DNA from: a virus
Taxonomy: Duplodnaviria; Heunggongvirae; Uroviricota; Caudoviricetes
Length of the DNA: 39,053 nucleotides
IMG/VR virus record: IMGVR_UViG_3300033150_000619
Direction: 5' to 3' (one strand)
Position numbers and translations under genes: made by a program. The first letter of the stretch is position 1; the number at the start of each line of letters is the position of its first letter. This document shows, one piece after another, positions 6,921 to 37,804 of this stretch. Below the pieces are notes generated by a model, which made no database searches, was not told where the DNA came from, and was given only the letters and a program-made list of their open reading frames with translations.

Positions 6921-7488
6921 TCTGTATATTTCTCCTTAAGAAGTATAGGTCACAGAACCTGCCCCTAGAAGTCCAACCGGGGATGTTCCGTATTCTCTTT
7001 TCTGGTATGACAACATTATCAAATATCAGATATCCACCATCACTTAGATCTAAGTCATAATATTCCCAGTTGAACATATGATCATGGGAGTATACGTAGA
7101 TAGAAGCTAGTCTACTACCCTTTAGCCTATCTACCTCATCCCTACGAATTACTTCAGTTGCCCCCTGCCTAACTAAGAAACTATTGAGGAACTCTGGTAC
7201 AACAGTAACTACTCTTTGCTGTTTATACCCGATATTCCTTATCAGTTTCTCTATGAACTCAGAGGTCCAATTATCATAGGATCCAATAACCAGATGAATC
7301 ACATCATCTGAGTCGGGTCTGGTCTTTGCAGATTCGATAATGGCGTATCCGATAGCAGTCTTAATAGTAATAGGCGTCTTCTCAAGAGCTACAGATTCTA
7401 CTTCCTCTATTGTTGTCTCTATCAATCTATTCGTTTCGGATGGGTTAAACCAGAACTTCTTAAGATCCTTCCACGCCATCTCCTTCAC
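6856..7488 (-). CDS. hypothetical protein, possible divergent class I SAM methyltransferase fold
   Basis: C-terminal LSDGGYLIFDNV resembles the L..GG.iifD strand of class I MTases; no clear motif I. Confidence 0.4.
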   Translation of the reverse strand: MKEMAWKDLKKFWFNPSETNRLIETTIEEVESVALEKTPITIKTAIGYAIIESAKTRPDSDDVIHLVIGSYDNWTSEFIEKLIRNIGYKQQRVVTVVPEFLNSFLVRQGATEVIRRDEVDRLKGSRLASIYVYSHDHMFNWEYYDLDLSDGGYLIFDNVVIPEKRIRNIPGWTSRGRFCDLYFLRRNIQNDSWSNDSNQGEESESTKQDI

Positions 7489-7526
7489 TCATTACACTTT
7501 ATGCTAACACAGTATCAAATAAAAGA

Positions 7527-8318
7527 TTATAGTCTACCAAGCCATTTATCCCTCTCAATAGTAGACCTACGTATTTTATCGTCTATGTCTGGTATCATCT
7601 CACGATTTCGGGTAGCGTGTCCATAATGGAATAGGAATACAGAGGGCACCACCCATGTCTCCAACTCCTTATCGTGTAGTCCCTTCATAAGGTAGGCACC
7701 TGTATGAGATATCCTATAGTCCTGTGGGTACTTTATGTCTAGGAATGTATCTCTCCTCATAGTTGTTCCTCCTCCCTCTAATACTAAGTCTCCACGGAAA
7801 GGCTTAGATCTAAGTCTTGCCAGATAGTATTTGATGTAAGGGGAGACGTCATCTGCATGATGAAAGACTGACCCATCCTTTCTGTCATACTGAAGTATTC
7901 TAGCATATGCACTATCAATAGGTTCAGTAAATGACCTTAGCCTCGTGTCGTCATGAACTAGATTACATGCTGGTGCTACTGCACCTATTTGCTCCCTCGA
8001 CTTCAGCACACGCAGCAATCTCTTAGTCCACCCAACCTGAGTAACACGTATGTCGTTATCTAAGAAACATATAGTTTCGGATTGGGTCTCTTGTGCAGCA
8101 ACATTACGTGCATTACAAGCACCTAAGTTCCTACGTAATAAGATTAAGTGATCTATATCTACTGATGACAACCACTCCTGCGTTCCGTCCTCAGAGCCAT
8201 TATCTATCCATACCAATTCTGCATTGGGATTACTTGTGTACCTCTTGTATGCCTTATAGCATATCTTGCTGTAGGGAAGAGCATTCCACGACGTTACTAT
8301 TACAGAGATGGAGTCCAT
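7527..8318 (-). CDS. Glycosyltransferase family 2
   Basis: SVIVTSWN, IDNGSEDGT, NLGACNARN, FLDND. Confidence 0.9.
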   Translation of the reverse strand: MDSISVIVTSWNALPYSKICYKAYKRYTSNPNAELVWIDNGSEDGTQEWLSSVDIDHLILLRRNLGACNARNVAAQETQSETICFLDNDIRVTQVGWTKRLLRVLKSREQIGAVAPACNLVHDDTRLRSFTEPIDSAYARILQYDRKDGSVFHHADDVSPYIKYYLARLRSKPFRGDLVLEGGGTTMRRDTFLDIKYPQDYRISHTGAYLMKGLHDKELETWVVPSVFLFHYGHATRNREMIPDIDDKIRRSTIERDKWLGRL

Positions 8319-9265
8319 ATCCTCACCGCTCTATCATCGTTAAAGCCAGGCGGGTTCTGCATAGGTCTTACTGTCTCCCATATTGCCTTAATAGTGTCTA
8401 CGTCCCACTTCTCGTAGAACCTTTGTCTGGGATGGACGTAAGTAACACCATACTCCTCCTTCAGCTCTTTGGTTCTCTTTCCTTCTTTGCCACCGTGTTG
8501 AGATATAGTCTTGCTCACGTAATGGACTATTTTAGTATGGGAGGTAGACACCACCTTCCATCCATTTAACCATAGTCTCATACAGTAATCCACCTCATCA
8601 TTACCGAAGAAGAATGATTCATCGAAGAACCCTACATCTTCTACTGCTTCACGACGCAGTAAGATGCAGGCGCCAGGCATCCACATTACCGGAACTTCAT
8701 GCGCTCCACTCCAATGCAGTGTTATATCAAAATATCCTAGTCTATTCTTCCCCATGTCCCTTATAGTACCTCCCTTAGTTGTTTGGATAGGCGACGCATA
8801 TCCCACATTAGGATCATCGAAGCAATGTAAGACATATGACAGCCACTTCTTAGAGAAGAGTATATCGTTGTTTAATATACCAATGTAATCATAGCCATTA
8901 TCTAGTGCATGTTCCAGGGCTCTATTCCACGCATAGGATATCCAGTAAGGTCTGTCCAGTTCTATTAGCTTAACGTATGGAAACTCAGATCTAAGTCTAT
9001 CTGGCGTTCCATCTGTAGAAGCTCCGTCCAGGACTATAGTGTCAATAGGATACTCTGTATTTGCACGCAGTGACTGCAAACAATCTCTAGTGTAACTCCA
9101 CTGATTCAGTGTTGTAATAATGATACCTACTCTCTTATCAAGTGATATAGGTGTCATCGGTAGCTCCTGTGAAGCGACCTGCAATCCATTCTTAATGCAG
9201 ACTCTGCAATAGTTACCTTCCCCAATAAAAATAGATCCACATCCCCAACACTTATGCTGAGTCAT
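8300..9265 (-). CDS. Glycosyltransferase family 2 with N-terminal CxxC-x9-CxxC module
   Basis: DGASTDGT, LNNDI, GACILLRREAVEDVGFFDE..DYCMR, VHY; N-terminal CWGC...CRVC. Confidence 0.9.
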   Translation of the reverse strand: MTQHKCWGCGSIFIGEGNYCRVCIKNGLQVASQELPMTPISLDKRVGIIITTLNQWSYTRDCLQSLRANTEYPIDTIVLDGASTDGTPDRLRSEFPYVKLIELDRPYWISYAWNRALEHALDNGYDYIGILNNDILFSKKWLSYVLHCFDDPNVGYASPIQTTKGGTIRDMGKNRLGYFDITLHWSGAHEVPVMWMPGACILLRREAVEDVGFFDESFFFGNDEVDYCMRLWLNGWKVVSTSHTKIVHYVSKTISQHGGKEGKRTKELKEEYGVTYVHPRQRFYEKWDVDTIKAIWETVRPMQNPPGFNDDRAVRIWTPSL

Positions 9266-9743
9266 TCCCTCTACTAACCATCCATTGATTTTGTAGAACT
9301 ACCAGTTCAGATATCTCTTCATGAGATACCCCTCCCTCTTTATTCTTATAGTAGATGTCGGTTAAGCCTGCATTGATTATCATCCTTTGACATATATGAC
9401 AGGGTCTGTCACAATCTCCATCCTCTGCACTATTCAGGAATAGTATACCTCCCTTAATCATAATTCCATTTCTTGCCGCGTTGATAATAGCATTCTGCTC
9501 AGCATGAACAGCAGCACAGTATTGATAACTGGTATAGTGAGGTTCATTCATTATGTCCTTACCACAGGGAACGTCTTCTCCACAGTTCAGTGTTCCCCTG
9601 GCTGAGCCGTTATATCCATCGGAAAGGTGTACTCCGTCCTGAGATGTTATAATAGCCCCAAACTTCCTTCTCTGACATTTAGATCTCTTGGCTATTACCC
9701 TACACTCATCAAGGAAGCTATTAATCCTATCTCTATTCATCAT
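9252..9743 (-). CDS. dCMP deaminase family protein
   Basis: RSKC.RRKFGA, GYNG, HAEQNA, PCHIC, INAG. Confidence 0.93.
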   Translation of the reverse strand: MMNRDRINSFLDECRVIAKRSKCQRRKFGAIITSQDGVHLSDGYNGSARGTLNCGEDVPCGKDIMNEPHYTSYQYCAAVHAEQNAIINAARNGIMIKGGILFLNSAEDGDCDRPCHICQRMIINAGLTDIYYKNKEGGVSHEEISELVVLQNQWMVSRGNDSA

Positions 9744-9749
9744 ATCTAC

Positions 9750-10007
9750 CTATTCCCTTCCCTCTAATAATATCTTTAGTACCTCTCTGCTTAATGGAGC
9801 TACAGTCTCATGTCCGCAGTCGAAGCAATGAAACCAGCTCTCGTATTTAGCATCTACATCCTCTACTCTGTATCTATTGGTCTATCCAGGGTTGTAACAT
9901 GCCCTATTAGATTTTATCCATATAGTTAAAGGTCGCTCCTCAAAGCTGTACCACGCATAACATCTGTGTCTACTAGAGCAATTTAGACAGTGTTTCTCTA
10001 AGTCCAT
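9750..10007 (-). pseudogene. 85-codon Cys-rich ORF interrupted by an in-frame TAG at 9882-9884
   Basis: MDLEKHCLNC...CYNPG*TNRY...HCFDCGHE...LLEGRE*; fills the gap between its neighbours. Confidence 0.5.
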
Positions 10008-10039
10008 TACCCTGATATTCTGCACCTTTAAGTTATCAC

Positions 10040-10810
10040 TCATTTGAATAAGCTTCCATAGTCTACTCTATCAAATACATCCAGTTTGGTTTTAGCACTA
10101 GCGTTGTATATTTCTATATTATTCTCTATAGCAGTTAGCTGAGCTACCCTGTATGAGTTAGTAGTTAAGTCTGTCCTAGGTTTATGATACTTCCTCCCCT
10201 CTCCAAAGTAGTCAGGTGTAAAATGGTCTGGATCATCACCTGATGATATAAGTCTCCCCTCAGACATACCAACCTCCCTAACATCATCTGTTCTGGAATA
10301 GTAGTGATCTATACCTATCAAATATATTGGATTGTATCCCATCATGCACGCTACCTGCAACATAAAGTATGTGACAGTCATTCCATGATATACTCTATCC
10401 GGAGATAGAGAAAAGTCTGGCCAGTACAGCAACCTATTCCCTATCCTTTTCCACCCACCCCTGATCTGGTTAACTAAGCAAACATTACTCCAGTTGGTTA
10501 TAGACTCAGCTAACTCGTAGGGTAGGAACTTGATGTCTGCTTCTAATGCATTCCATTCGTATACTGTATCTCTGGCTACCCTAACATCTTCTATACACCA
10601 ATAAGGAAAGTTAAAGTCAAGGTTCCACTTGTCATAGCCTAAATAAATCCTGTTACAGCTGAAGCAATCCTCGTCCTTGAGAAGACTTAGATCTAAGTCA
10701 TTTAGAGATGGTCCATTACCAATTACGAAGCACCTACCAGACTTAGTGTTGTGTAGGTCATGCAACGTCAGGTACTTCTTATTCCTTAGAAACTCTATAT
10801 CCTGATTCAT
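10040..10810 (-). CDS. DUF115/Maf-like (sialyltransferase-like) glycosyltransferase
   Basis: RCFVIGNGPSL, NRIY, G.TVT...LQVA..MGY.PIYLIGIDH, DHF..DYF, IYNAS. Confidence 0.8.
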   Translation of the reverse strand: MNQDIEFLRNKKYLTLHDLHNTKSGRCFVIGNGPSLNDLDLSLLKDEDCFSCNRIYLGYDKWNLDFNFPYWCIEDVRVARDTVYEWNALEADIKFLPYELAESITNWSNVCLVNQIRGGWKRIGNRLLYWPDFSLSPDRVYHGMTVTYFMLQVACMMGYNPIYLIGIDHYYSRTDDVREVGMSEGRLISSGDDPDHFTPDYFGEGRKYHKPRTDLTTNSYRVAQLTAIENNIEIYNASAKTKLDVFDRVDYGSLFK

Positions 10811-10853
10811 TCATATACTCCTCTCCACTTTCATCTACCTACCGTTTGCTTAA

Positions 10854-11222
10854 TCATGGTAGTTCAAACCAGCTCATCCAGTCATCATGAATAATTGTCG
10901 GTGGGTGTAGCCTTTTCACTTCTTGGTAGGACTCGTAACCACATCTTCTCTCCTCAACAGCGAGATAACAGGCTATGATGAAGGGGCTTCGATCAATACC
11001 TCCATGGCAGTGAACTAGGGTTGGATATCCCTTTCTAACCGACCTCCTGATTACACTAAGAATATCATTAATTTCGCCTCGGTCTCTCTCATAGAATTTA
11101 TCTAAGTCGAATCTCCAGTGCGATATGTCTATTATAATTACGGGAGTATCTTTATCTGATTCAAAGTAGACACCCGCTGAATCATCGCCTACATACAGGT
11201 TCTCTCTAATCTTCGTCAGCAT
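10854..11222 (-). CDS. Dual-specificity protein phosphatase
   Basis: I.ENLYVGD and the P-loop VHCHGGIDRSP (HCxxGxxR). Confidence 0.9.
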   Translation of the reverse strand: MLTKIRENLYVGDDSAGVYFESDKDTPVIIIDISHWRFDLDKFYERDRGEINDILSVIRRSVRKGYPTLVHCHGGIDRSPFIIACYLAVEERRCGYESYQEVKRLHPPTIIHDDWMSWFELP

Positions 11223-11224
11223 TT

Positions 11225-11575
11225 CTAAGTCCTCTTTTTGGTTTCTACTTGAGATAATACATCATTGAGAAGCCACTTCCCATAATCACTACCATTATTT
11301 GTTATTTCTCTAATCCATCCCTCTATTACATCAACGACTTGCGATTCTTGAAGGTGCAAATATAGTTGTTCCTCTTTTCCTGTCTCTTCATCCCCATCTA
11401 CTTTTAGATAAAAACCCTCATAATCAAATCCCGCTTCCCTAAGCATCGCATTTTCCCATCTAATAAAGTTAGGGTAATGCTTCACAAGAAGCCCAGAGTT
11501 TTTATATGGATCTTCTATGGTGTCCGTCTCCTGTGTTTGATAATGGATTGTCTTAATACGTACCCACAAGGACAA
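11225..11575 (-). CDS. hypothetical protein
   Basis: Co-oriented ORF abutting the next gene. Confidence 0.6.
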   Translation of the reverse strand: MSLWVRIKTIHYQTQETDTIEDPYKNSGLLVKHYPNFIRWENAMLREAGFDYEGFYLKVDGDEETGKEEQLYLHLQESQVVDVIEGWIREITNNGSDYGKWLLNDVLSQVETKKRT

Positions 11576-11629
11576 TATCTGGGTGTATCAATCGGACAAA
11601 CCGAGCAAAGGTTTTTGTTCTCAGTCTCT

Positions 11630-12646
11630 TCAAGAAGTCGATCTATCGTTCTGCTCATTATTATCATCTACCATCTGTTGTACCTTATCAGCATCTGGTT
11701 TGGGTAGAACCTTCATTAAATGTTTAGTTGCTTCAAAGACATATGATGGAACTTCTGTAGTGCCCCTAATCCTAGTTACATTCTCTCTATGGACAGCAAC
11801 TACTTCTGGACAATAGACTACCTTAAATCCATTAAGCCACGCCCTAAAGTTGTACTCAACATCATCACAATGTGCAATAAGCTTCTCGTCCATAAGTCCA
11901 CATTTATCTATACATTCTTTGGTAACGAGAAGCAGGGCTCCGGTATTCCACGTTACGTACTTCTGTCTATATATCTTATCTTTAACTAACCTAATGGGTT
12001 TACCGGCAAAGTTGTGCCACACAGGCATCTGTCCGTAAGATGCCCAACTATCTATTTCTGTATTATAGGTTCCACCTGCGTGTTGCACTATTGTCTTACC
12101 TGGATAGAGAAGTAGACATCCAACTATCCCAATCTTAGAGTCCTGTTTAGCACAGTCTACTAACTTATCTAACCATCTTTCTTCTACGAAGACATCATCA
12201 TTAAGCATAACTAAGTAATCAGAGTCCTTTACTCCTCTAAATCCTATGTTAATGTCACGGGCATAGTTGTATGGTTTCTCATTGAAATGTGTCTCTACTA
12301 TAACTAGCCTGTGCTCCCCAGGAGTATACTTATCAATCCTATACTTACAGAACTGGAAGTTCTCTCCCCCAACATCAGGGGTTGTGATTACAATCGTAGC
12401 TCTATAGTCTCTATCTTCCTTTCTAGGAATGTGAACGGAGCCGGTCGGAAACGGTAATCGTTCAACAGTCAGTCTTCCTGACTTAACCTTACTCTTAGGC
12501 ACCATTGCCATTCTATCAGGAGGAGCAGATATCACCTCAGGCTCAGGGTCTGGTTCCCATCCTGGGTTATTACTCCTACAGATTCTACATATCCTATCAG
12601 TTCCTAGGAATATACCACCACATATCAGGCATCTCTTCTGTTCCAT
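11630..12646 (-). CDS. Glycosyltransferase family 2 with N-terminal CxxC-x9-CxxC module
   Basis: MLNDD, IGIVG.LLLYP..VQHAG, TGALLL, DDVEYNFR, H.E..TR; N-terminal CLIC...CRIC. Confidence 0.9.
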   Translation of the reverse strand: MEQKRCLICGGIFLGTDRICRICRSNNPGWEPDPEPEVISAPPDRMAMVPKSKVKSGRLTVERLPFPTGSVHIPRKEDRDYRATIVITTPDVGGENFQFCKYRIDKYTPGEHRLVIVETHFNEKPYNYARDINIGFRGVKDSDYLVMLNDDVFVEERWLDKLVDCAKQDSKIGIVGCLLLYPGKTIVQHAGGTYNTEIDSWASYGQMPVWHNFAGKPIRLVKDKIYRQKYVTWNTGALLLVTKECIDKCGLMDEKLIAHCDDVEYNFRAWLNGFKVVYCPEVVAVHRENVTRIRGTTEVPSYVFEATKHLMKVLPKPDADKVQQMVDDNNEQNDRSTS

Positions 12647-12810
12647 TCTTCCTCAAACCACTTATCTACATCTTGTAAGTACAACCACCGTATAAACGAA
12701 GTTTCTGAGTCTCCATCTGGGTAAATGGTCAGATTCCAATACTTTTCATCAGACGGATCCGGAAAGTCATCCGGTATGTGTTTAGCCGCTCCTATCAACG
12801 TATCCTTCAT
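12625..12810 (-). CDS. hypothetical protein
   Basis: Small co-oriented ORF. Confidence 0.5.
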   Translation of the reverse strand: MKDTLIGAAKHIPDDFPDPSDEKYWNLTIYPDGDSETSFIRWLYLQDVDKWFEEEWNRRDA

Positions 12811-12873
12811 TTACTATATCCACCCATCATATACATTTCCACATTCTATATGACTTTAATATTTCTACATTGA

Positions 12874-15135
12874 CTAGCCTTCAATGTTCCATAGCTCCAT
12901 TATCTTATCCAGGGTATGTGTCCATGTGTAGGTTGAGCGGCATCGCTGTGCACCACGTATAGCAATCTTTCTGGCATATTCCCAGTTATCATACACATAT
13001 CTCATCTGTTCCATACAGGACTTTAGAGATGGCTCTAAATACTCTATTGTATGATATTCTCCTTCGTGTGCAGGTCTAAACGCTGGACCTTCTACTTCAA
13101 TTGGGAAGTAATCCTTCTGTAGGAATTCTACATGTCCACTACCATCTGTTATTATTACCGGCAAACCAGACGCCAGTGCTTCTAAGGCAGGTAGACAGTT
13201 ATGTACACAAAACCCACCGGTAACATAGGTATTATCCTCTTCAACCTCTAAGTTGTAAACTTTACCACTATAGTATGTTCTCTTAACGTCCTTTACTAGG
13301 TGAACGTTGAATCCTCCATTATTAACAACTTTATTGGAGTGTCTCCTTCCTCTTTTAGTGCTATAGCTCAATGTGTATTGATATCTATCTTTTCTCTCGC
13401 TACATTGAATAGTAGATGGATATCCGTTATTGGATAGACATATCCTAAGACCATGAATCAAATCAACAGACACACTCGAGTATCGCCACGTATTACCGGA
13501 TAAAGAACCATCCCCCAGAAACGCTGCTTCTATAAATTGCATACCTAAATCTTTATTCTGTATTATTTCATTTGGAACTCTCTTATGATATGCTCCTTCT
13601 CCACATAGATGAGAAAACAACTTGGCATAAACTCTACCGGATAAAGTTACCTGTGTTTTTGTATCATAATCACTTACACAAACAGATTTACCAAATATAG
13701 AACCAACTAGGTTCTTCACATCTTCTACAAGCTCCGGTTCCTTCCCAAATGTAAATTGTGTAGCGTTACCATTAGACACTATACTCCCTTCAGATGCGTA
13801 ATATCCAAGAAGCCTAGACATATTTTCATCTATTAGATAGAATCTTTTGTATCTAATGGGTTTACTTTGTTGGTGATTTATAGACTTAAGGTACTCGTAA
13901 ACTACCTCTTGTCTAGTCGTAGACGGGGGAACACCACTATGATATTTATGAATGGTAGTCTCTACAACTTTCTTAGTTTCTCCAGTGATACTCATTATAT
14001 TAGATATACTACTCATCACACGAGGAGAATATCCATTCTTGAACCAAACCTGGGAGTCGTCATATAATACACTGTCATCTATGCTTACATAATCTATCCT
14101 ATATTCTTTATTTTCTAGTTCATAAGAGGGAAATAGTACACAGTCCCCCTTCTCTAAGTGTCTACACTTTATCCAAGTAGCATCATCTACATCCCAATTT
14201 GGTCTAGCTCCATTTCTCTTTATTACTAAGACTGGATGTTCTCCGGTCATAGATATGTCAAAAGGATATCCCCAAATATCTACAGAGTAAATAGGTTCTT
14301 CAAACACATACCTCGACAAAACTGAGGTAACAGGTCTAAATCTCCCTTTGTGAGTGTAGACCCCAGTTCCTCTTTGAATATCTATCATCGGTGTTATTCC
14401 ATCTTCAGTTACAACTGGAGTTTCTGGAAGTAAACAGAATCCCTCGCCGCGCGTTGGTAACACAAATGCATGAACTCCAGCATACATATCACCCATGCGA
14501 GAGAACGGTATCTTAGTAGTATCCTTAATGATATTCTTAGCTTTAGTAAAGTCTCTGGATGACCTAACCAGTAGATTAGCTTCTGATACCTTAAACTCCT
14601 GCCTAAATGCCTTCTCTAATACATCAAGTCCCTTACGCCAATCATCTGCTGCTATAGTGAGAAATGTGAACTTTCCAGTAGGCTCTGGTTGAATATGGAA
14701 TATGTCTGGATCAATACCATGTGGCACTACTCTTATCGGTGTGTTACTCTTACCAAGCTCGAATGCCTTCTTAGCAAACTCACTCGGGACCAATATAATA
14801 TCTACATCATCTGTAGACTTCCGATAAAATGAAGGTATCTTAGTGGCTTCCCAGTCTGTATAGAGTAGTTGATAGGATGGCTTAGGTCTAACATACGGAA
14901 TTGTAGTTATAGAGAGCATAGTCCTGTCTCTCGCTACACCCTTGACATACTCTTCTGTTACCTGTTTGCCCAACAGGTATTCATACTCACTCCTGTCGAA
15001 GGGACCAGAATCCTTACTGATTAGTAGCAGGTCGTGGTCTATGTTCTTCTTATAGAGTTCTCTTACTATGAAATGACCAATGATAGCAAAGGAACTTGGA
15101 AACTGTATATGGGCTCTGATTATGGGTACAAACAT
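12874..15135 (-). CDS. Glycosyltransferase family 4 (GT-B) with intein
   Basis: VPSEF, VVPHGID, RKGLD; the spliced motif is LPTRGEGFCLPALEALASGLPVI (E-x7-E). Extein 340 aa. Confidence 0.92.
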   Translation of the reverse strand: MFVPIIRAHIQFPSSFAIIGHFIVRELYKKNIDHDLLLISKDSGPFDRSEYEYLLGKQVTEEYVKGVARDRTMLSITTIPYVRPKPSYQLLYTDWEATKIPSFYRKSTDDVDIILVPSEFAKKAFELGKSNTPIRVVPHGIDPDIFHIQPEPTGKFTFLTIAADDWRKGLDVLEKAFRQEFKVSEANLLVRSSRDFTKAKNIIKDTTKIPFSRMGDMYAGVHAFVLPTRGEGFCLLPETPVVTEDGITPMIDIQRGTGVYTHKGRFRPVTSVLSRYVFEEPIYSVDIWGYPFDISMTGEHPVLVIKRNGARPNWDVDDATWIKCRHLEKGDCVLFPSYELENKEYRIDYVSIDDSVLYDDSQVWFKNGYSPRVMSSISNIMSITGETKKVVETTIHKYHSGVPPSTTRQEVVYEYLKSINHQQSKPIRYKRFYLIDENMSRLLGYYASEGSIVSNGNATQFTFGKEPELVEDVKNLVGSIFGKSVCVSDYDTKTQVTLSGRVYAKLFSHLCGEGAYHKRVPNEIIQNKDLGMQFIEAAFLGDGSLSGNTWRYSSVSVDLIHGLRICLSNNGYPSTIQCSERKDRYQYTLSYSTKRGRRHSNKVVNNGGFNVHLVKDVKRTYYSGKVYNLEVEEDNTYVTGGFCVHNCLPALEALASGLPVIITDGSGHVEFLQKDYFPIEVEGPAFRPAHEGEYHTIEYLEPSLKSCMEQMRYVYDNWEYARKIAIRGAQRCRSTYTWTHTLDKIMELWNIEG
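13198..14436 (-). mobile_element. Intein (413 aa) with LAGLIDADG endonuclease
   Basis: CLLPETPV ... TGEHPVL ... LLGYYASEGS ... FIEAAFLGDGS ... VYNLEVEEDNTYV..CVHN, with +1 Cys. Confidence 0.93.
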
Positions 15136-15136
15136 G

Positions 15137-15391
15137 TTATTCCAACATTACAGGCAATCTACCTACTCTCTGACATTTGACTTGAATTCCCAGGAAGTAC
15201 GGTATTTCATCTACTATATGTATAAAGTCCTCTCTTACCACTTCGTCATACAACATAGGATGTAAATAGATAGTATGGATATCATCTAGGTCTGAGTCTT
15301 CTATATATCTTAGCATTGTCCGATAGATTATGGTACCCATCGATAGCTTCTCTGTCGGGTCTAATCTTAGCTCGATAGACATTACCCGCAT
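15137..15391 (-). CDS. hypothetical protein
   Basis: Coupled to both neighbours. Confidence 0.6.
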   Translation of the reverse strand: MRVMSIELRLDPTEKLSMGTIIYRTMLRYIEDSDLDDIHTIYLHPMLYDEVVREDFIHIVDEIPYFLGIQVKCQRVGRLPVMLE

Positions 15392-15873
15392 TACTGATCA
15401 ACGTATGGAATTATAACCAGATATGTCTCTTTATGGAGATGGTTCTGTGCATGCCGCATGGTCCACGTTCCACCAGATCTACGATAATATTTACCGGTAT
15501 TCCAATCGTATTCTACCTTATCACCGAACTTCGTGACATCGTGATCAACAAACTCTGGTTCGATATCGTAGAGAACATCACTTTGTTCAGCTATCTCAAT
15601 ATTCCTTGTCTTATATCCTCTTAGTACCCTACCATCGAATGTGGCTACACTGTTCCATCTCTGTACTTCAGGATAATGGATAACCCTCTCTATCTTCAGG
15701 TCTGACGCCACCTCTTCCGCCCATATATCTACTCCACCACTCGGACATCCACCGGATATTAGTATTGGGTAATCGTAAGAACCTAGTATCTCCAGTATCT
15801 TCTCATAGACCAATCCCTTCTGCGATTCAGTCCAGTATTTCTCTTCACTGCCTACTATACCTACGTTTATCAT
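15391..15873 (-). CDS. SLOG-superfamily (YspA/DUF2493-like) protein
   Basis: VGIVGS, ISGGC..GVDIWAE, RN.EIAE.SD, SGGT.T. Confidence 0.75.
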   Translation of the reverse strand: MINVGIVGSEEKYWTESQKGLVYEKILEILGSYDYPILISGGCPSGGVDIWAEEVASDLKIERVIHYPEVQRWNSVATFDGRVLRGYKTRNIEIAEQSDVLYDIEPEFVDHDVTKFGDKVEYDWNTGKYYRRSGGTWTMRHAQNHLHKETYLVIIPYVDQ

Positions 15874-15917
15874 CTAATACACCGAACCTGCGTAAACTAT
15901 GCCAGGAGTTGGTGGTA

Positions 15918-16268
15918 TCATAATATTCTCTTTCCTACATTCTCATCTATGAACTTAGACCAGTGGTGCCTCTTAGTTTCTATGATGAAGATAGGCTTGC
16001 TTAGAGCGTACGCACTCCCCATATCAAATATGGTACCTAAGCTCGATAGGTCCCATATCACATGTACCTCATCACACCACTCTATACCCTCGAGATTCTT
16101 AGAGAGTATAACATTCTCCCATGCTCCTTCAAAGTTAGGACCTGGTTCCTGCGCCGTATCTCTGCAAGGTACATATGTATCGTGCCCTTCATATTCTAGT
16201 TTCTCAGCCCATCTAAGAGCATTATCACACATCCCCATCGAGTGAGCTATAAATATCTTCTTAGACAT
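15918..16268 (-). CDS. Nucleoside 2-deoxyribosyltransferase/Rcl-like protein
   Basis: KIFIAHS, YVP.RD, I..CD.V, SLGTIFDMGSAYALSKPI. Confidence 0.75.
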   Translation of the reverse strand: MSKKIFIAHSMGMCDNALRWAEKLEYEGHDTYVPCRDTAQEPGPNFEGAWENVILSKNLEGIEWCDEVHVIWDLSSLGTIFDMGSAYALSKPIFIIETKRHHWSKFIDENVGKRIL

Positions 16269-16290
16269 AACTTTCCTCCTCTATCTAATT

Positions 16291-16626
16291 TCATAGATTC
16301 AACATCTTCTCTTCTATCAAGCACTCTTCCATCAGGTCTATATAATTCAATAGATCATCTACCGTATCTTGCAATGGCTCGTTCTTAGGTTGTTTGCCGG
16401 AGAATAACAGATTGCTTAACCTCTGCAATTTGAGTATAACATACATAAGGGCAACACCATACGGGACTGTTACGTCTACATTAAGTATTCGTAATATCTC
16501 AGACACCTGCTTAAAGTTAGCAAGTACATCTTGCTCCTTAGCGTAATCGTGTCCTTTGGATTTACGGAGAGCCCACCTTCTCTTAAAGGATGAATCTCTT
16601 ATCTTCTTAGACTCTTCTATCTTCAT
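16291..16626 (-). CDS. DUF1599/nucleotide-modification-associated all-alpha (MazG-like) protein
   Basis: K.HDYA...D.LANF, KLQRL.NL, NEPLQDTVDDLLNY. Confidence 0.75.
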   Translation of the reverse strand: MKIEESKKIRDSSFKRRWALRKSKGHDYAKEQDVLANFKQVSEILRILNVDVTVPYGVALMYVILKLQRLSNLLFSGKQPKNEPLQDTVDDLLNYIDLMEECLIEEKMLNL

Positions 16627-16643
16627 TTGATAATAGGAAGTAA

Positions 16644-16940
16644 CTACACAATAAAAGAATTACTGGGTAGGTCATCCTCTTCTCTTCTTATAGGTACAGC
16701 AATATCTTCCATCTCAGCTAATGTAAGCTCCTGTATCTTCTGGGAAAGAAGGACTACGGCATTAAGTGGGATATCATCTATTGTCTCGAACTTTGGATCG
16801 ATGGTAGCTGCCATTACCATATAAGGAATAACCATAATTGAGTTACTATACATATTAGCTATCGCCAGTACTTCTGATACATTGAGAGGTCGTACTGTAT
16901 ACATCTCTCCATCTATCTCTATATCCTCCGTCTTTCTCAT
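16644..16940 (-). CDS. hypothetical protein
   Basis: SD GGAG upstream; co-oriented. Confidence 0.6.
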   Translation of the reverse strand: MRKTEDIEIDGEMYTVRPLNVSEVLAIANMYSNSIMVIPYMVMAATIDPKFETIDDIPLNAVVLLSQKIQELTLAEMEDIAVPIRREEDDLPSNSFIV

Positions 16941-17028
16941 CCCAAATCTCCACTAAGTATTATGGCTATGACCATTTATAGATATGCTTCCATTGAAGTG
17001 GTCCATCTTTAACGTACTGTTTGTCTAT

Positions 17029-17289
17029 CTACCAAGCGTGAGAACCTAATGATATTGCTAAGCTATTGCATCGTCCTATTCTTAACTCCTCTAACAGACA
17101 TATCTGTAGCCCAGAATCTATAATCTCCCTTCTGACTCTACGATAGAAGACTCTAACACTAGGCGGATGTATCACCTTAATGCTATTGTTGATTAAATCG
17201 AATCTCGCAACAGAGGTCATATTTATACGTCTATGGCTAACCCTATCTAGTAAACTGTTTACTACTCTATCTATTAACCTGTACATCAT
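17029..17289 (-). CDS. hypothetical protein
   Basis: Co-oriented ORF overlapping the MTase stop. Confidence 0.45.
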   Translation of the reverse strand: MMYRLIDRVVNSLLDRVSHRRINMTSVARFDLINNSIKVIHPPSVRVFYRRVRREIIDSGLQICLLEELRIGRCNSLAISLGSHAW

Positions 17290-18610
17290 AGTTTAGTTCC
17301 TTAAGTCTATTGATGGATATATCTATGTACCTGGGTTCTATCTCTACTCCAATACAATTTCTATTTAGAGTAGCAGCTGCAACCATAGTAGTTCCAGACC
17401 CAATAAATGGATCAAGTACTGTGTCACCCTCAGAAGTTGCAGCCTTTATGAACCACTCAGCCAACTTGACTGGGAAGACTGCAGGATGTACCTTATTCCC
17501 ATATTCGCTTCCTATATCAATGATATTCTTCGGTAGAGCTCCCTTGGGATTTGGCTCCCATTCCTTATATTCCCTGACAGGATTATTAGGGTCACGAGCC
17601 CATCTCTTCTTTATAGGGTACTCCATTCTCTTGACCGATATCGGATTATATGGTCTGCGGACATCATCTCTATTGAACCTAAAGTTAAGGGACTTTGAAA
17701 ACCACAGACAATTATGTACAATTCCACCAAGTGTAACATAACTATGATCATCTTCCACTTCTAAATTATGAACAGTAACCTCCTTCTTAAGAGGAATAAT
17801 ACTACGTATCTTATGATAACTAAACCTGTTATTTAAATGAATAAATGGTTGTCTAAGAGATGAATTTACTACCTCATGATGAATTACTGGAATAGTTAAA
17901 TAGTCTCCAACACTGAGTTCCCCAATAGGTACCCACCGTAGACTTTGCGTATCTACTATATCATTACAATTAAAAGTACAAGACGGTCTACATGTATGAG
18001 ATTTATACTTTGAACAGTGATGATTGATAACCGCTAATACTGGATGGTTATGAGTTATTTCTAATGGATTAGGAAATCCAGTTACAGAAACTGACAGTAA
18101 ATTACTAGTTCGTCTTGTCATAGTATTTGTTACTCTTCTATAATTTCCAGTATGAGATAAGACATAATCTCCTACTGAGATATATTTAATCCTCTTTAAA
18201 CCTTGTGAAGTATATATCAAGGTATCTGGTGCTACACACGGTTCATAGACATTTGTAGCACGATAGTTGCTTCTAATGGGTAGCATCTTACCCTTATTCC
18301 ATATATACATCTCAATGTAATGAAGACCTAATTCATCTACGGCGTAGAGCCACAGCTGTGGTATTCTGGTAGAACGCTCGACCTTAGTTACTTTATCATC
18401 TATATTTAGAACAAATATCCCGCTCTCCTTTAGAAGAGGAGGTATTAGCTTCATCCAGTCTTTGGACCACTGGATGTATTCGTCCTCTGATAAATTGAGG
18501 TCATACTCCTTGCCAACGTTGTACGGTGGTGAAGTAAAGACTAGGTCTATAGATTCCTTTTCTAATTGAGGTAGAATATCAAACGTATCCCCTTCATACA
18601 AATGGAGCAT
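17267..18610 (-). CDS. Beta-class amino (N4-C/N6-A) DNA methyltransferase with mini-intein
   Basis: Motif IV TSPPY precedes HPAVFP and motif I VLDPFIGSGTT. Extein 271 aa. Confidence 0.93.
   Translation of the reverse strand: MLHLYEGDTFDILPQLEKESIDLVFTSPPYNVGKEYDLNLSEDEYIQWSKDWMKLIPPLLKESGIFVLNIDDKVTKVERSTRIPQLWLYAVDELGLHYIEMYIWNKGKMLPIRSNYRATNVYEPCVAPDTLIYTSQGLKRIKYISVGDYVLSHTGNYRRVTNTMTRRTSNLLSVSVTGFPNPLEITHNHPVLAVINHHCSKYKSHTCRPSCTFNCNDIVDTQSLRWVPIGELSVGDYLTIPVIHHEVVNSSLRQPFIHLNNRFSYHKIRSIIPLKKEVTVHNLEVEDDHSYVTLGGIVHNCLWFSKSLNFRFNRDDVRRPYNPISVKRMEYPIKKRWARDPNNPVREYKEWEPNPKGALPKNIIDIGSEYGNKVHPAVFPVKLAEWFIKAATSEGDTVLDPFIGSGTTMVAAATLNRNCIGVEIEPRYIDISINRLKELNYDVQVNR
17711..18238 (-). mobile_element. 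Mini-intein (176 aa) with a Cys/His-rich insert
   Basis: CVAPDTLI ... ITHNHPVL ... VHNLEVEDDHSYV..IVHN, with +1 Cys; no LAGLIDADG motif. Confidence 0.92.
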
Positions 18611-27108: not shown

Positions 27109-27704
27109 GCGGTGTTAATATCTATCCTCTGCCCTATAAGCCATTCCACCAAGGTCTTCTGCGCTTCATCCTCTTCTTCTTTATTGCGGATATCCTTCAA
27201 TTTGATCAATCTATTAGTGATTGCTTTTCTCAGTCTGCTCCTCGCAGTAGCTGCATCCCATCCCTTAACAGCACTGAGCTTAGCAGTGATACCGAACTTA
27301 ATATCCGGTGTACTTACTTCTTGAACCACAATAACTATTTCGTCAGCACCACGATCAATATCTATGTCTATTATCTCAAACGTGCAAGTCATATTAATCA
27401 CCTAGACATAATTCTACTTATATCTTTAGGGCTTCATGCCATCTTTCATACATTATCCTGCGACATTATCCTGCAACCATTCTTGTGTACCTGAGCACCA
27501 AAGGTATTGTAGATAATAACTAGTATCTGTCTTTAATTCATAGATGTGTTCATTATAGATTACCCTCGAGTTCACGGATCTAAAGAAGGGTATAAGGTAT
27601 AGAGCCTCTAACTCCCATACTCTAATACCTGTCTCTATTACTTTAGAGAAGGGTAAATCTATGTACGTGATCTTACCCTGAGTCCTCAGAGGTAGGCGTA
27701 TCAT
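27105..27704 (-). other. Two hypothetical genes (27105-27401, 27453-27704)
   Basis: Co-oriented ORFs. Confidence 0.55.
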
Positions 27705-28740
27705 TTCTATTTCCCTGCATAAACTCGGAGAACCTAGGGTCTATTTCGTCTAAACCAACCAGTGCTTCCTTTAGACCCTTATACCTGTTCCTAATAGTGA
27801 CTTCTGTAACACCAGCAGCACCAGCTATAATCTTCTGCGTCTTACTTACCTCATTGAGTTGACACGCAATGTACAAAGCTGCGGCAGCTAATCCCATCGG
27901 ATCCTTGCCAGCTGTTAGCTTCAATTCCTTAGCTCTGTCAAGAATAGAAGCAGCTAGTCTCTGAGTATCTTCATCTATACCTATCTGTAATGCTATTGCT
28001 GATATCTTATTGGTAGAGTCTGGCACTGGTACCTCCAATTCCATCTCTCTCAACATCAGTCTATAACAACGAGCTATATCTTTCTTAGAGACTGTGGATA
28101 CCGCTGCTACATCAGATAAGGTCCTAGATAATGCAAACATCCTACAGGCAGCGTATACACTAGCTGCAACAATCGCCGCTATACTCCTACCCCTAACCAG
28201 GTCAGCTTCTAATGCTTGTCTATATATCTGAGCAGACTTCTCTTTGATAGAGAAGGGTAAGTTCATCATATCTGCTATCCTTGCTAACTCAGACATTGCT
28301 TGAATTAAGTTCCTATCTGTTGAAGAGTGCACACGTGACCTGACCTGCCACTTCTTAATACGGTATATCAGCTCTCTTTGTTCCTTACTAGTCCCAGCGG
28401 CTGGAGAACCTATAACAGTAGATAGTCCCTTATCATGGACAGATTGAGATAGAGGCGCACCCGTTCGTTCCCTCCTCTCCCTCTCTTCTTTAGAGAAGGC
28501 TCTCCATTCAGGAGATGTAGAGGCTTGTGTGTATCCTAATACCAGACCACACTCCTTACAGATTACCTCAGTCTTCTCTGTGACTATTCCCCTTGATCCA
28601 CAGGAAGGACATATCTGTGGAATAGCATCATCTATATCTTCTATTGGGTCTATATTATCAGTTGACATAATCTTATATACTCCGGAGTTACCAGTAGGTG
28701 GTATTGTACCCTTATAAGAATATCTCTTAGGAGTAGACAC
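27673..28740 (-). CDS. tfb: Archaeal transcription initiation factor TFB (TFIIB)
   Basis: Zn ribbon CPSCG..CKECGLV, PEWRAF, HDKGLST, cyclin repeats LVRGRS..AASVYAACR and GKDPMGLAAAALYIAC, VTEVTIRNRYK. Confidence 0.97.
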   Translation of the reverse strand: MSTPKRYSYKGTIPPTGNSGVYKIMSTDNIDPIEDIDDAIPQICPSCGSRGIVTEKTEVICKECGLVLGYTQASTSPEWRAFSKEERERRERTGAPLSQSVHDKGLSTVIGSPAAGTSKEQRELIYRIKKWQVRSRVHSSTDRNLIQAMSELARIADMMNLPFSIKEKSAQIYRQALEADLVRGRSIAAIVAASVYAACRMFALSRTLSDVAAVSTVSKKDIARCYRLMLREMELEVPVPDSTNKISAIALQIGIDEDTQRLAASILDRAKELKLTAGKDPMGLAAAALYIACQLNEVSKTQKIIAGAAGVTEVTIRNRYKGLKEALVGLDEIDPRFSEFMQGNRNDTPTSEDSG

Positions 28741-30830: not shown

Positions 30831-30874
30831 ATCTGTCTGTCTCAGTACCTGTCGTAATCTATAGTATGTAGAGA

Positions 30875-31521
30875 TTACGGAGCTTCATATCTCCTTACCG
30901 TGGTCTTCTCCCCAACTACTTCCCATGTTGGATTTATAGATAAACACTCGTCTTGTACTCTCCTAAAGAAAGCATCTATAGCTTCTTCTCTTTCCTGTGG
31001 AATCTCCCCTGTGATTGCCCACCTTTCCCGTGGTTTGACGGGATTCCAGACGTTAATGTAATAATCATCTCTTCAGCTCCATTGCTAAATACCTTACAGA
31101 GCCTAGCTTCCTCGATGCTGAGGTATAGTTTGTAAGAAACCTCATTGTGACGTATAACCCAATCTCTCCTGAACCCGTGTCCACAGTAATAGTCATCTAG
31201 ATTGTTCCTATAAGGTGGTTCAACTATTCATAATCTATCCCTAGATGAAAAGATGTATAGTCCATTACCAGACTTGTTCACACTACTAAGCCTACGATAT
31301 ATCTGAGATAGTGCCTTCAATACATTCTTCCGTGTCTTCTTGTCCTTTATGTTCCGTGCTGTACCTATCTCCTTCCGAATCATAGAAAGTACAGAGCTTA
31401 TGCTGGTTGTTCAACTCACGCTGAGACTCACAAGGTCTGTCCTTCTGGACCTCTTCGTGAGGATATAGTCCATACCGGGCAATGAGTTCCTGGTATGTAT
31501 ATCTGTGTTTAAGTCATCCAA
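30875..31521 (-). pseudogene. prf1: Cryptic peptide chain release factor aRF1/eRF1 (N domain plus most of M domain), interrupted by two UGA codons and a -1 frameshift; recoded gene or pseudogene
   Basis: TDLVSL, EIGTARNIKDKKTRKNV, NGLYIF, VEPP, YYCGHGF, SGIPSNHGKGGQSQGRF, then REEAIDAFFRRV in the -1 frame. Confidence 0.9.
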
Positions 31522-31523: not shown

Positions 31524-31559
31524 TAATCACCGTGATTACTATGGTGTCGATTTATATAA
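31524..31559 (-). promoter_or_regulatory. TATA box, SD and overlapping palindrome upstream of the aRF1 gene
   Basis: TTATATAAA (31551-31559), GGTGA (31527-31531) and the inverted repeat TAATCAC-N-GTGATTA (31524-31538). Confidence 0.5.
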
Positions 31560-31655
31560 CTCCATAGGTTAGTTCTCCTTTAATCAACGTTAGATGCGGA
31601 GTACTGATTGATCAATAAACATTTATTCCAGGATGTACAGATGGAGCAGTTCTCT

Positions 31656-33932
31656 TCACATATCTTCACGGTTACTTACCCATTCTGTAATTTTATCATA
31701 GAACATCATAGGCATCTTACTTCGTGCCAGTGCTAATGATTGATATATAGGATCATATTTCCTATGAGAGAGCATCGTCTCACATTCTGCCTTAGATAGA
31801 TAAGCTATCTCAATATCTGCAGTAACTGGGATTATATTATCCGTAGCAAGAATATATCTAATCCTAGACTTAACTAACTGTTCAATTCGTTTAGCCATTC
31901 TAATTCCATCGCTGTGAGATTATGCTGTTTCTTATATATTACATAGTTGTCTACTATCTCGACCTTGGTCATAGAGAAGGACATCCATCCTCCCCTATGA
32001 TAAAATGCACATTCGATCCAATAAACCGGGTATCTTCTCAATCTTTTAATCTCAATGTCCGAATATGGTAAACCTAGTTTCTTAGAGATCGTTGGTACCT
32101 CCTTTTGTTCGGTGGTACACCGTTGGTACACCTTCAGATCGTTGGTACCTCTATAGTATTGTTGGAGTCAGTTGTAGATACGGTGGTAGTCAGGTAGGTG
32201 TATATTGTGTGCTGTACCTATCTCCGATTTCTGAGCCAATCGATGATGCAGTATCCTCGATAACAGTTTATGGGAATGAATGGATCATCTGAACTAGTTT
32301 GATATCTAGAGTCTATTAGCTTCCTAAGATAGGACATCTCACTTGATATCGGTCTACATGAAGTTAGATCACAGTTCCTATCATCACAGGATACCTCTAA
32401 GTCACATACCCTGAGATACGGTACCTGTCTAGATGGAAACCGATTATATGTGGCAGACCAACTATAGGTGGATGGCATATCTCTCTTCTCCCTCCTTCCT
32501 ATACTTATCATATACTTATTAATCCCACCAAGCATAAACGCAGTATCCAGTATCAGTCTTATCGACCTCTATACTATCTGCATGATGATAAGTTGTTACT
32601 AGACTTAGTCCCTCGTCTGCCGTTAGTCGAGTAGCCTCGAATCCTTCGATAGAGACTCGATAGTCAAACCTAGGAGGTAATATCACGTATCCGTGTAGTG
32701 TTATCCTGTCCTTATACACGTCACACAGTTGTAAGAACTCCCCTATTCGGGGTGAATAGTTCTGCGTAGACTCTAACCAGTTACTGTCATCATAGCAGTA
32801 CCTGTCGTCATAGTGACCTATTATATCGTGTAGTGTCATGACCTGGTCTTTAGTTAGACCTCTGAATCTATGATAAACATCAGACGTATTGCTGTATCTT
32901 ACTCTCTGTCCATTAATTACTCGTAGAATCTCAGCGTAATCTTCGTTCATCGGTAGCACTTAGATCTAAGTCGTTGCTTTATGTTTGGCTAATGACTCTG
33001 CTATCTTATTCTTCATTTTAGTCCTAGCCGACTTCATACCTCTGCTGAGTTCATCTATGTGTGGATCTGTGTCAGACCATAGTCTATATTTGTCCATAGC
33101 CTGTTTGTACTTCTTAGGACAACAGAATCCATACTTAGTAGCCCAGTTCTCTTTTCTCTCTTCCTCTGGGATTGCGTCACAACCACAGTCATAACTAATT
33201 TGGTTCATCTAATCCTCTCTTAGAGAGCGTAATGCCTGTACAAGGAATTCTTCTACCTCTTCTATTGATAGAATATCGAATTTATCTGGCACTATAAAGA
33301 ACCCGTAGTCCGTTCCTTTGAAGGCTGTTTCTAAGACACTCTGTAGATGTACTAGTTGGTCCTGATGTAAGTCAGAAGGTACCTTTATCCATAAGATATG
33401 TTTAGTTGTCATTCTTACCACTCCAATCTTTTGTTCTCGGAAATACTATTCCGTCGAATGCATCATATGAGAATATATCATGTCTCCTTAACCAACGGCA
33501 TTCCTCTATCCACAGGACTAAATGTGGTTCGTGTGGGTGTCTGCATTCCAGCTCCCATACGAATTTATAAAAGTCCTCTAACCAGCAGGAGGGTCTCATT
33601 GCAAGGTATATCGTCTATCACCCTTCATTCCTTCCATAGTAAAGGAATAGAGACATCCCCATCAACCATATACCCGTATACAGGAACTTTGTCTCCTCAG
33701 TCCATATAGATACGAATATTAGGAATGCTCCGAATAGGAAGGCGGAATCTATCTTATCTGGAATCTGCATATATCTAAACCTCTCACTTAGATCTAAGTA
33801 TTTATTGAAGAGCCAGTCCCATACAGTAAATCCATATTTGGTTAACCCCATGATAAGTATCCCTGCTATCGAACCTATCAGTATTGCTTCGATAGTGAAT
33901 AAGTAGAATTCAATAGATGATAGCTCTATCAT
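31656..33932 (-). other. Run of small hypothetical genes (31656, 31874, 32218, 32519, 32966, 33209, 33402, and the 33618 membrane protein)
   Basis: Co-oriented and tightly packed; no family that I can name. Confidence 0.55.
32086..32151. repeat. Cluster of four CG(T/G)TGGTAC repeats
   Basis: AGATCGTTGGTACCTC at 32086-32101 and 32136-32151, flanking the tandem CGGTGGTACAC/CGTTGGTACAC. Confidence 0.8.
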
Positions 33933-35995: not shown

Positions 35996-37804
35996 TCAGT
36001 GTACCTCGTAGAGTTTAGCAAACGGGAGATCAATTGCAGTCGTTCCTGGCCTGACATCTGTATCACCTATTATTCTTTCCAAGGCTAACTGAACGTATCC
36101 TTCGTCCAGCTCTATTCCTATTGAGTTTCTATCTAGTCTACGTGCAACTAATGATGTAGTACCAGATCCCACAAACGGGTCCATAATTGTATCATGGGGA
36201 AAGGAGTAGAACTTGATTAGTCTATATGGTAGCTCTTCTGGGAATGGGGCTGGGTGCTTACCTGATAGCCTATTCTCAGCCTGTATCTGCCACCAGCTGT
36301 TAGTCCACTCCTTAAACTCGTCTTCAGTAATGTCAGGGTCTACTTTATAATCTGATTGTCTATGCTTCTGTCGTATCTTATGGTATATCAGGATACACTC
36401 ATATGGATTAACCATCCACGGGTCTGATGGACTCCCATATGAACCCCAGGCTGTATTATGGTATGTTATGTCCCCTAAGAAGGATCCATCTTCTTCTACT
36501 TCTAGATTATATACGGTTCCGAAGTAAGATTCATTACTTGACCTAACCGGGTATAAAACATTGTTGCCAACTATATCTATCAATGGACGACTGTTAGATA
36601 CATCTACTAGTGGCTTCCCCGTAATTGATCTAAGTCTATTCCTGTAGATAGGATGATATATCCTAATCCTGTAAGCAGTTGAACTTCTAATAGAGTAATC
36701 TCTCTGTATGGAAGATACTATTCCAAATCTAAGAAGTAAATCTCTAATACCAAGGGCTAGAGGTAGTGATACTGTAGTATAGTGATCATCTTTATCGGAG
36801 AAGCACCCGTCTGATGCCCATAAGCCCCTTATTAATTCCTCTTGTAAGTTTAAAGGAGAGTACATAGCCCAGTCGACAATATGCTTTTCATGGGCACTTG
36901 TACCAAACTGCTTTAGAATATTACTTGTGTAATTATCTCTAAGTTCTAATCTACGAAGGTCTCCACTTTCTGTGACACTAAGAGTTCCGTGCCATGTATC
37001 TTCTAGGTAATCTATGTCTTCTCCATTTCTCTTATTTAGATCTAATCTAATATCCGATCTACGGATAGAACCATCTCCTATATAATATCCAATTAGCCTG
37101 TACATCAAAGATTGGTCAATGTCATAGGATGGAATGCTTCCAACGTGGCTATCTATGCCATAGAGTAGCATATCTCCAAATCTTAGATCTTCTGCATTTA
37201 TCCACTCTGGTTGGGGTGGATACTTACGGTGCTTTCCTTTAATTGCAAGAACAGGATGATTCCCACTTAGATAGATATCCGGTAATCCATAGACGGATAG
37301 TGACCATATCATATCTTTATTTGAACCAGTATTTACTACCCTCCTATACCTATGCATATGAGTCTTAACTAGATCTCCTTTAACCAGCGATTGTATCTCT
37401 GAGTATCCATTCGGAACTCTAACTTGAGACCCGAAAGGAAGGCACCGTCTCGGTACGTTCTGTTTATACCAGATTACTGTATCCCTGTACTTCCATCCTA
37501 CTTCCTGTAGGATATGTCCTATGTCAACCATTATGTTAGCTCTACGAGGTAGTTGCTTAGTTATTGGAATATTGACACATATTCTACCACCTACCTTAGT
37601 AGCATCATAACATGCTTGCCATACATCTCTCATCCATTCGAGATACTTGTAATAGGGAATCGTATCATCGTAAGACGCGTAGTCGATACCAACATTGTAC
37701 GGGGGTGACGTAATTATAAGATCTACCAGCTCTCTGCCTCTTTCACTTCTAATATGAGGCAGCACCTCTAATGAATCTCCTACATATAATTTTGTATATA
37801 CCAT
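35996..37804 (-). CDS. Beta-class amino DNA methyltransferase with intein
   Basis: TSPPYN, IW.K, TAWGS, HPAPFPEEL, MDPFVGSGTT. Extein 272 aa. Confidence 0.93.
   Translation of the reverse strand: MVYTKLYVGDSLEVLPHIRSERGRELVDLIITSPPYNVGIDYASYDDTIPYYKYLEWMRDVWQACYDATKVGGRICVNIPITKQLPRRANIMVDIGHILQEVGWKYRDTVIWYKQNVPRRCLPFGSQVRVPNGYSEIQSLVKGDLVKTHMHRYRRVVNTGSNKDMIWSLSVYGLPDIYLSGNHPVLAIKGKHRKYPPQPEWINAEDLRFGDMLLYGIDSHVGSIPSYDIDQSLMYRLIGYYIGDGSIRRSDIRLDLNKRNGEDIDYLEDTWHGTLSVTESGDLRRLELRDNYTSNILKQFGTSAHEKHIVDWAMYSPLNLQEELIRGLWASDGCFSDKDDHYTTVSLPLALGIRDLLLRFGIVSSIQRDYSIRSSTAYRIRIYHPIYRNRLRSITGKPLVDVSNSRPLIDIVGNNVLYPVRSSNESYFGTVYNLEVEEDGSFLGDITYHNTAWGSYGSPSDPWMVNPYECILIYHKIRQKHRQSDYKVDPDITEDEFKEWTNSWWQIQAENRLSGKHPAPFPEELPYRLIKFYSFPHDTIMDPFVGSGTTSLVARRLDRNSIGIELDEGYVQLALERIIGDTDVRPGTTAIDLPFAKLYEVH
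36455..37444 (-). mobile_element. Intein (330 aa) with LAGLIDADG endonuclease
   Basis: CLPFGSQV ... SGNHPVL ... LIGYYIGDGS ... LIRGLWASDGC ... VYNLEVEEDGSF..TYHN, with +1 Thr. Confidence 0.93.

Follow-up and report, generated by a model that had tools for sequence, protein, structure and literature searches.

Conserved in-frame UGA codons in a short aRF1-like release-factor gene suggest readthrough-gated expression in archaeal tailed viruses

Introduction

Can a release-factor gene that is itself interrupted by stop codons be a working gene? The question is raised by the minus strand of a 39,053-nucleotide stretch of viral DNA (IMG/VR record IMGVR_UViG_3300033150_000619; hereafter the window), in which a frame starting at TTG 31521 contains two in-frame TGA codons (31411-31413 and 31228-31230), is broken at 30991/30992 ahead of a 0-frame TAG (30976-30978), and continues in the shifted frame up to a TAA at 30875-30877. 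Translation of the window reproduced all of these elements of the original prediction, which had read the locus as a class-1 release-factor gene expressed through two readthrough events and a programmed -1 frameshift.

Release-factor genes gated in a comparable manner are known from bacteria and giant viruses. The bacterial prfB gene for RF2 is controlled by an autoregulatory +1 frameshift at CUU UGA C with an internal Shine-Dalgarno (SD) sequence. In Mimivirus (R726) and Megavirus (mg280), a class-I release factor is recoded, its early UGA being proposed to be read as Trp, and Jeudy et al. described release-factor autoregulation as absent from the archaeal homologues (PMC3521657). According to a 2021 review, the stop-codon readthrough demonstrated in archaea is that for selenocysteine (Sec) and pyrrolysine (Pyl) only (PMC8211752). 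A literature search for a release factor of an archaeal virus found no paper.

Results and Discussion

A short aRF1-like factor lacking the C domain

The gene (30875..31521; this and the other gene features below are on the minus strand) encodes a short aRF1-like protein of 199-215 aa with the N domain and most of the M domain, and without the C domain. By consensus match only, a TATA-like box, TTATATAAA (31551..31559), lies about 30 nt 5' of the TTG codon, and a GGTGA SD-like element (31527..31531) lies 5 nt ahead of it; a promoter and terminator scan, with models of bacterial type, stayed at chance level. Since an alternative ATG start (31471..31473) aligns with the start codons of 13 relatives, the first 16 codons, from TTG 31521 to this ATG, may be untranslated or dispensable.

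With TGA taken as Trp, the readthrough product matches solved eRF1 and aRF1 chains (best E 2.4e-10). Of the class-1 a/eRF1 motifs proposed at the outset, the following are kept in the viral relatives: the TARNIKD decoding motif (31342..31362), of which NIK is invariant and mostly followed by D, the YxCxxxF decoding motif (31171..31191), with invariant Y and G and with C and F each conserved in 90% or more, and the GGQ catalytic motif (31015..31023), GGQ in 13 of the 14 lineages and GGS in one. An AlphaFold2 model based on 13 sequences (pLDDT 88; pTM 0.57, so that the domain orientation is uncertain) found aRF1 and eRF1 as its best matches, with a TM score of 0.81 to ribosome-accommodated eRF1. 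The C-terminal truncation was also predicted correctly. The eRF1_2 profile was matched in 13 of 13 members, and eRF1_3, representing the C domain, was matched in no viral member. In all 14 members the protein is 177-215 aa long and stops one strand and one helix beyond the post-GGQ helix, and the absence of the C domain is thus a family trait.

The viral factor shares the N- and M-domain fold and motifs with cellular archaeal aRF1, at 30-38% identity. In contrast, the cellular genes are mostly of 360-440 codons and include helix 1, the GT-E loop and the C domain. The viral factor lacks helix 1 relative to Bathyarchaeia aRF1, and, compared with the host-type aRF1, it is without the C domain, the last part of the M domain and, in most members, the Gly of the GTS loop (Gly in 2/14; the Thr of this loop persists in 13/14). 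It is also strongly basic: its pI is about 10, and that of host aRF1 is 6-9. Human eRF1 without the C domain still releases in a simple assay (PMC2909394), and UGA specificity has been described for human eRF1 isoform 2, which is devoid of the GTS loop and helix 1 (PMC11277123). For the viral factor, these two cases serve as analogies only.

Conservation of the in-frame UGA codons

By sequence searches and DNA look-ups, 14 lineages with DNA were collected, at 32-75% identity. On a quick tree these viral lineages form one clade (SH-aLRT 99), separate from cellular aRF1. One or two in-frame TGA codons were detected in each of the 14 lineages, 21 in total, one of which (in L042, close to the C terminus) could be a true stop; neither TAA nor TAG was present. 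Only 25% of the single-base routes to a stop in the viral release-factor genes lead to TGA.

Site 1 (AGU UGA A; 31411..31413) is located in the loop following the first beta strand and is common to 11 of the 14 lineages. The other three hold Gly, Lys and Tyr at this position; site 2 is present in all three, along with another TGA in two; TGG was never found at site 1 across the 14 DNA loci. At site 2 (UUA UGA A; 31228..31230) the column is TGA in seven lineages and TGG in five, the two codons having been swapped at least three times by a hand count on the quick tree. This composition points to Trp as the residue inserted at site 2.

The base following the stop (+4) is A after all 21 internal TGAs, which represent only about five independent columns, as compared with 8 of 23 TGG codons in the same genes and 13 of 47 terminal TGAs in the related 136-kb contig G001. 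For site 2 alone, A follows 7/7 TGA versus 2/5 TGG (p about 0.045, kinship not being corrected). At site 1, A is also found in two of the three members without the stop, and part of the +4 A signal may therefore be an amino-acid constraint. As a terminal stop, UGA-A is not avoided in these viruses (13/47 and 14/33).

Purifying selection was apparent on all sides of the stops: before, between and after them, pS was 0.80-0.82 and pN 0.36-0.44, pN being about half of pS everywhere, and the ratio is conservative since pS is near saturation. For the closest pair, L002 and L003, pS was 0.54-0.66 and pN 0.16-0.17.

Stop-free full-length members would have topped the search ranking. For three apparently stop-free proteins (P0008, P0009 and P0051), the DNA showed in each case a gene with TGA that had been called under code 4. 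The proteins P0195 and P0212, represented by protein sequence only, carry W at the sites and are either code-4 calls or true TGG alleles, that is, possible exceptions. The family is hidden in the databases because gene callers split its genes or switch to code 4. Taken together, the comparison supports the proposal that the UGAs within the gene are recoding sites under conservation rather than the result of decay.

A frame break private to the window

The recurrence in relatives holds for the stops and fails for the frameshift, which was found in none of the 13 other lineages. The one-base deletion (30991..30992) is present in the window only, and breaks the frame eight codons past GGQ. In the viral contig L001, 99% identical to the window, an extra G at 30991 leaves the frame unbroken, and it is likewise unbroken in P0054, a database protein derived from that contig. 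Three Logan contigs from three separate studies (X1, X2 and X3) are one base longer than the window across the break, known indels being counted, so that their intact frame is deduced from length arithmetic. The missing base is a G within a purine-rich AG run, not an A lost from an A-run as had been suggested.

The model of two readthroughs plus a programmed -1 frameshift is what the window sequence itself would need, and Mimivirus R726 does pair readthrough with a frameshift (PMC3521657). With the frame intact in near-identical strains, no shift in other lineages, no slippery heptamer at the break, and a break situated past GGQ rather than early, we regard this model as extremely unlikely. 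By comparison of strains, the window frameshift is a private lesion or an assembly error that stands outside the recoding device, and the window allele is probably inactive or mis-assembled. Single-base indels between the window and G001 are few, and the deletion could therefore equally well be a genuine null allele or an assembly error.

Among the matches listed, the site 1 TGA is present in L001 and in Logan contigs X1, X2 and X4, and the site 2 TGA in L001, X1 and X3, with no other letter at either site. The X4 strain lacks a 477-nt stretch (30898..31374; seen in one contig at depth 7, with 28 nt on the short side), a deletion that takes out most of the release-factor gene. With the window frameshift and the X4 deletion, two out of six strains known for the window virus are without a functional gene, which indicates that it is dispensable.

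These inactivating lesions are what could be expected if the whole viral family consisted of pseudogenes descending from one nonsense allele. Such a family would hardly maintain the pN/pS pattern described above, nor catalytic and decoding motifs at 32% identity, nor be free of TAA, TAG and frameshifts in the 13 other lineages and L001. The pseudogene reading of the family is largely refuted, and we consider it very improbable.

Strain variation was also observed around the gene. Small indels (23, 1, 2, 3 and 18 nt) are clustered on both flanks (window 30840-30871 and 31562-31660), more densely than elsewhere in the 20 kb common to the window and G001. A 30-bp segment at window 31933-31962 is inverted in G001/L001, where the inversion breaks the 85-aa ORF 31874-32131; for its orientation, four Logan contigs side with the window.

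Gene specificity and the genetic code

No internal stop was detected in 80 diverse archaeal aRF1 matches or among the 150 Bathyarchaeia aRF1 matches listed, cellular archaeal aRF1 being uninterrupted in all 230 matches inspected, and none was seen in any other gene common to these viruses. TGA ends 26 of the 67 window genes and 70 of the 199 ORFs of G001, and the virion genes of G001 are open under code 11. As far as these gene comparisons go, the recoding is specific to the release-factor gene.

TGA being an ordinary stop in both the window and G001, a general reassignment of UGA is rejected. Selenocysteine insertion or a general reassignment, in the virus or its host, would agree with the exclusive use of UGA among the internal stops, and a genuine tRNA-Sec(UCA) is encoded by at least one Bathyarchaeia metagenome-assembled genome (MAG). 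Nevertheless, tRNA-Sec scored above the cut-off in only three of 151 Bathyarchaeia, one of the three being a tRNA-Ser, and the stop columns are Trp or variable and not Cys as in selenoproteins. No tRNA with a UCA anticodon was found in G001 or in G047, a second virus with the gene. Together with the ordinary use of TGA and code 11, these results leave this explanation scarcely credible. The tRNA-Sec(UCA) is located at L184:1497-1588 of MAG G083, and G145 contains a second candidate.

An intron at the UGA is excluded, because no insertion exists relative to the members without the stop. Re-initiation yielding separate peptides is unlikely, since the strand preceding the UGA is conserved and lies within the fold; the codons past site 2 are mostly ATA, ATC, ATT or ACA, which is also against re-initiation.

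If the UGA were edited in the mRNA (A-to-I, to be read as UGG), no ribosomal readthrough would be needed. An editing motif would be in keeping with the interchange of TGA and TGG at site 2, with the fixed UGA-A context and with the weak hairpins that finish just 5' of site 1 in four lineages (z -2.1 to -3.0). When the RNA surrounding the 21 UGAs was folded, however, no shared downstream structure emerged, nor any structure common to the lineages. We know of no A-to-I editing of archaeal mRNA, and consider editing a very unlikely explanation.

Virus, host and tRNA genes

Over its right half, the window shares about 99% identity with the 136-kb IMG/VR contig G001 (locus L001). Because G001 encodes major head, tape-measure and tail proteins, the virus is a tailed virus, and the early assignment to an archaeal virus-like element gains support as an archaeal tailed virus. 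The DNA was contained in runs from hydrothermal-vent and marine-sediment samples. Among 44 diverse archaea, the transcription factor TFB of the window is closest to that of four Bathyarchaeota genomes (53-60% identity), and this single gene makes Bathyarchaeia the likely host. No member of the viral family was present among the matches listed from the top GTDB matches or from 301 Bathyarchaeia genomes, and no match was found in INPHARED phages or PHROGs.

Several other features of the viral genome were observed. The virus carries two TFB paralogues (window 27673-28740 and G001:26220-27107). The left half of the window (1-18558), including genes for an XPF/ERCC4 nuclease, a RadA-like protein and sugar modification, has no DNA match in G001, which starts at window position 18559. 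Intein-like inserts were recognized by eye in four window genes (3520-5526, 12874-15135, 17267-18610 and 35996-37804), one epimerase-like, one glycosyltransferase-like and two methyltransferase-like.

G001 contains tRNA-Thr as its only tRNA gene, and no tRNA-Trp was found for the window virus within this 89% complete contig. In contrast, G047, an 84-kb virus whose release-factor gene has both UGAs, carries about 17-20 tRNA genes, including a tRNA-Trp(CCA) about 6 kb from the release-factor gene (G047:28416-28491, L136:1501-1576). A C27-A43 mismatch leaves this tRNA with a 4-bp anticodon stem. Fifteen of 16 other credible tRNAs of this virus have five pairs, and in its tRNA-His the top pair is unpaired too. 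A normal stem of 5 bp was seen in the only host tRNA-Trp examined; two sequence patterns for host tRNA-Trp gave no match, probably owing to introns. A tRNA-Trp with a four-pair stem has been tied to UGA readthrough in protists, and raised readthrough about 2.5-fold in E. coli (PMC13092985).

Proposed mode of regulation

Based on the sequence comparison, we propose, with a probability of about two in three, that programmed UGA readthrough gates a viral release factor acting independently of a GTPase, and that it does so, in all likelihood, by feedback. The virus-specific clade of very basic aRF1 derivatives of ~200 aa retains the N domain, which decodes stops, together with the GGQ arm, and the gene of each member has one or two in-frame UGA-A codons in its N-domain half. 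The majority of ribosomes would terminate at the UGA, and a fraction would insert an amino acid, most likely Trp by near-cognate tRNA-Trp(CCA), to yield the full protein. Readthrough would rise whenever host aRF1 is in short supply or acts slowly at UGA, so that the factor would be made when termination is limiting; once made, it would damp its own synthesis, as prfB and Mimivirus R726 suggest by analogy. The gate would be tighter with two UGAs, and the factor without the C domain would act without delivery by aEF1-alpha. In the window, the additional one-base deletion would truncate the protein past GGQ. Since the leaky stops are confined to a release-factor gene, the simplest reason for their presence is that they sense termination efficiency. 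The autoregulation and an altered stop-codon preference of the factor, both put forward in the original prediction, remain inferences. Several results weigh against the proposal: no conserved stimulatory RNA structure was found downstream of the stops, UGA-A is not avoided at gene ends, part of the +4 A signal may have another cause, the gene is dispensable, tRNA-Trp is missing from G001, and the host tRNA-Trp examined has an ordinary stem.

Alternatively, the readthrough may be real, and the stops a fixed attenuator or timing switch instead of a feedback sensor: a potentially harmful GTPase-independent factor, with ribosome rescue as its possible role, would be kept low, or be turned on by a viral UGA-reading tRNA-Trp. 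The variable number (one or two) and movable positions of the UGAs, the high pI of the factor, the 4-bp-stem tRNA-Trp near the gene in G047, and a PTH2 gene close to the release factor in the related contig L037 are in agreement with such a role. The stops are, however, found only in a release-factor gene, as a self-sensing circuit predicts, and the NIK and YxC decoding motifs are retained; furthermore, G001 is without the tRNA-Trp, and the viral tRNA-His likewise has an unpaired top pair. The attenuator or switch is the main rival, but on balance rather unlikely.

Feedback through readthrough is thus our preferred reading. In its widest form it would imply that archaeal ribosomes perform programmed UGA-to-Trp readthrough of neither Sec nor Pyl type at UGA-A, and that tailed viruses of Bathyarchaeia gate a minimal, GTPase-independent and UGA-preferring release factor as a feedback sensor, aided in some of them by a viral tRNA-Trp with a 4-bp stem. 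We advance this extended proposal tentatively, giving it slightly less than even odds.

Comparison with known recoded genes

The gene is closest in its features to Mimivirus R726: both are viral genes of eRF1/aRF1 type with a conserved early UGA (in 14/14 lineages here) and a predicted in-frame bypass, the recoding is in one gene only, NIK, YxCxxxF and GGQ are kept, and autoregulation has been proposed. It differs from R726 in the archaeal host, the lack of the C domain and the UGA-A context (21/21) as against UGA-C, and the second programmed event of R726, a +1 frameshift (CUU-stop-C), is absent here. In the giant-virus eRF1 genes L127 and L128 the TGA-C is located five codons downstream of the viral-archaeal site 1, and the single giant-virus sequence in the tree falls, on a long branch, outside the viral-archaeal clade. 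These Mimivirus-type in-frame TGA-C codons are at L127:302-304 and L128:3412-3414; L128 changes frame further on.

Like prfB, the viral gene is gated by an internal UGA close to the start of a release-factor gene. Unlike prfB, it encodes an unrelated fold, its frame is kept across the UGA, and it has no CUU UGA C or internal SD signal. In the coat/A1 readthrough of phage Q-beta (context UGAACU; PMC13517186), again in a prokaryotic virus, the UGA also precedes an A, but the product is a C-terminally extended capsid protein, neither a release factor nor a sensor. Stop-recoded phages, with in-frame stops in many late genes (bioRxiv 10.1101/2021.08.26.457843), resemble the present viruses in combining in-frame stops and translation genes in a virus of a standard-code host; here, in contrast, a single gene is affected and no cognate suppressor tRNA was found.

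If the proposal is true, stop-gated control of release factors has independently reached the viruses of archaea as well, and the smallest working a/eRF1 is defined. The clade presents a candidate case of archaeal readthrough by a standard amino acid that is conserved, restricted to one gene and set in a short, testable context. It also supplies a natural minimal a/eRF1 of about 200 aa for identifying which parts are required for decoding and GTPase-free release.

Other genes were noticed near the release factor. In the related virus L026, genes for ribosomal protein S30 (eS30; 1211-1423) and SUI1/eIF1 (2287-2583) are located just upstream of the UGA-gated gene. The related 107-kb contig L037 contains genes for PTH2 (a peptidyl-tRNA hydrolase), TFB, NADAR and TROVE/Ro60 close to its release-factor gene (7505-7852, 8203-9189 and 372-1904). 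An intein-like insertion right at GGQ was observed in the aRF1 genes L016, L017 and L018 and in P0125, P0173, P0179 and P0182. Other shortened aRF1-like clades of about 165-330 aa (P0029/36/39/40/44, P0041/126/146/174/121/193, P0027-35 and P0018/21/70) are located outside cellular aRF1 in the tree, and are possibly further viral families.
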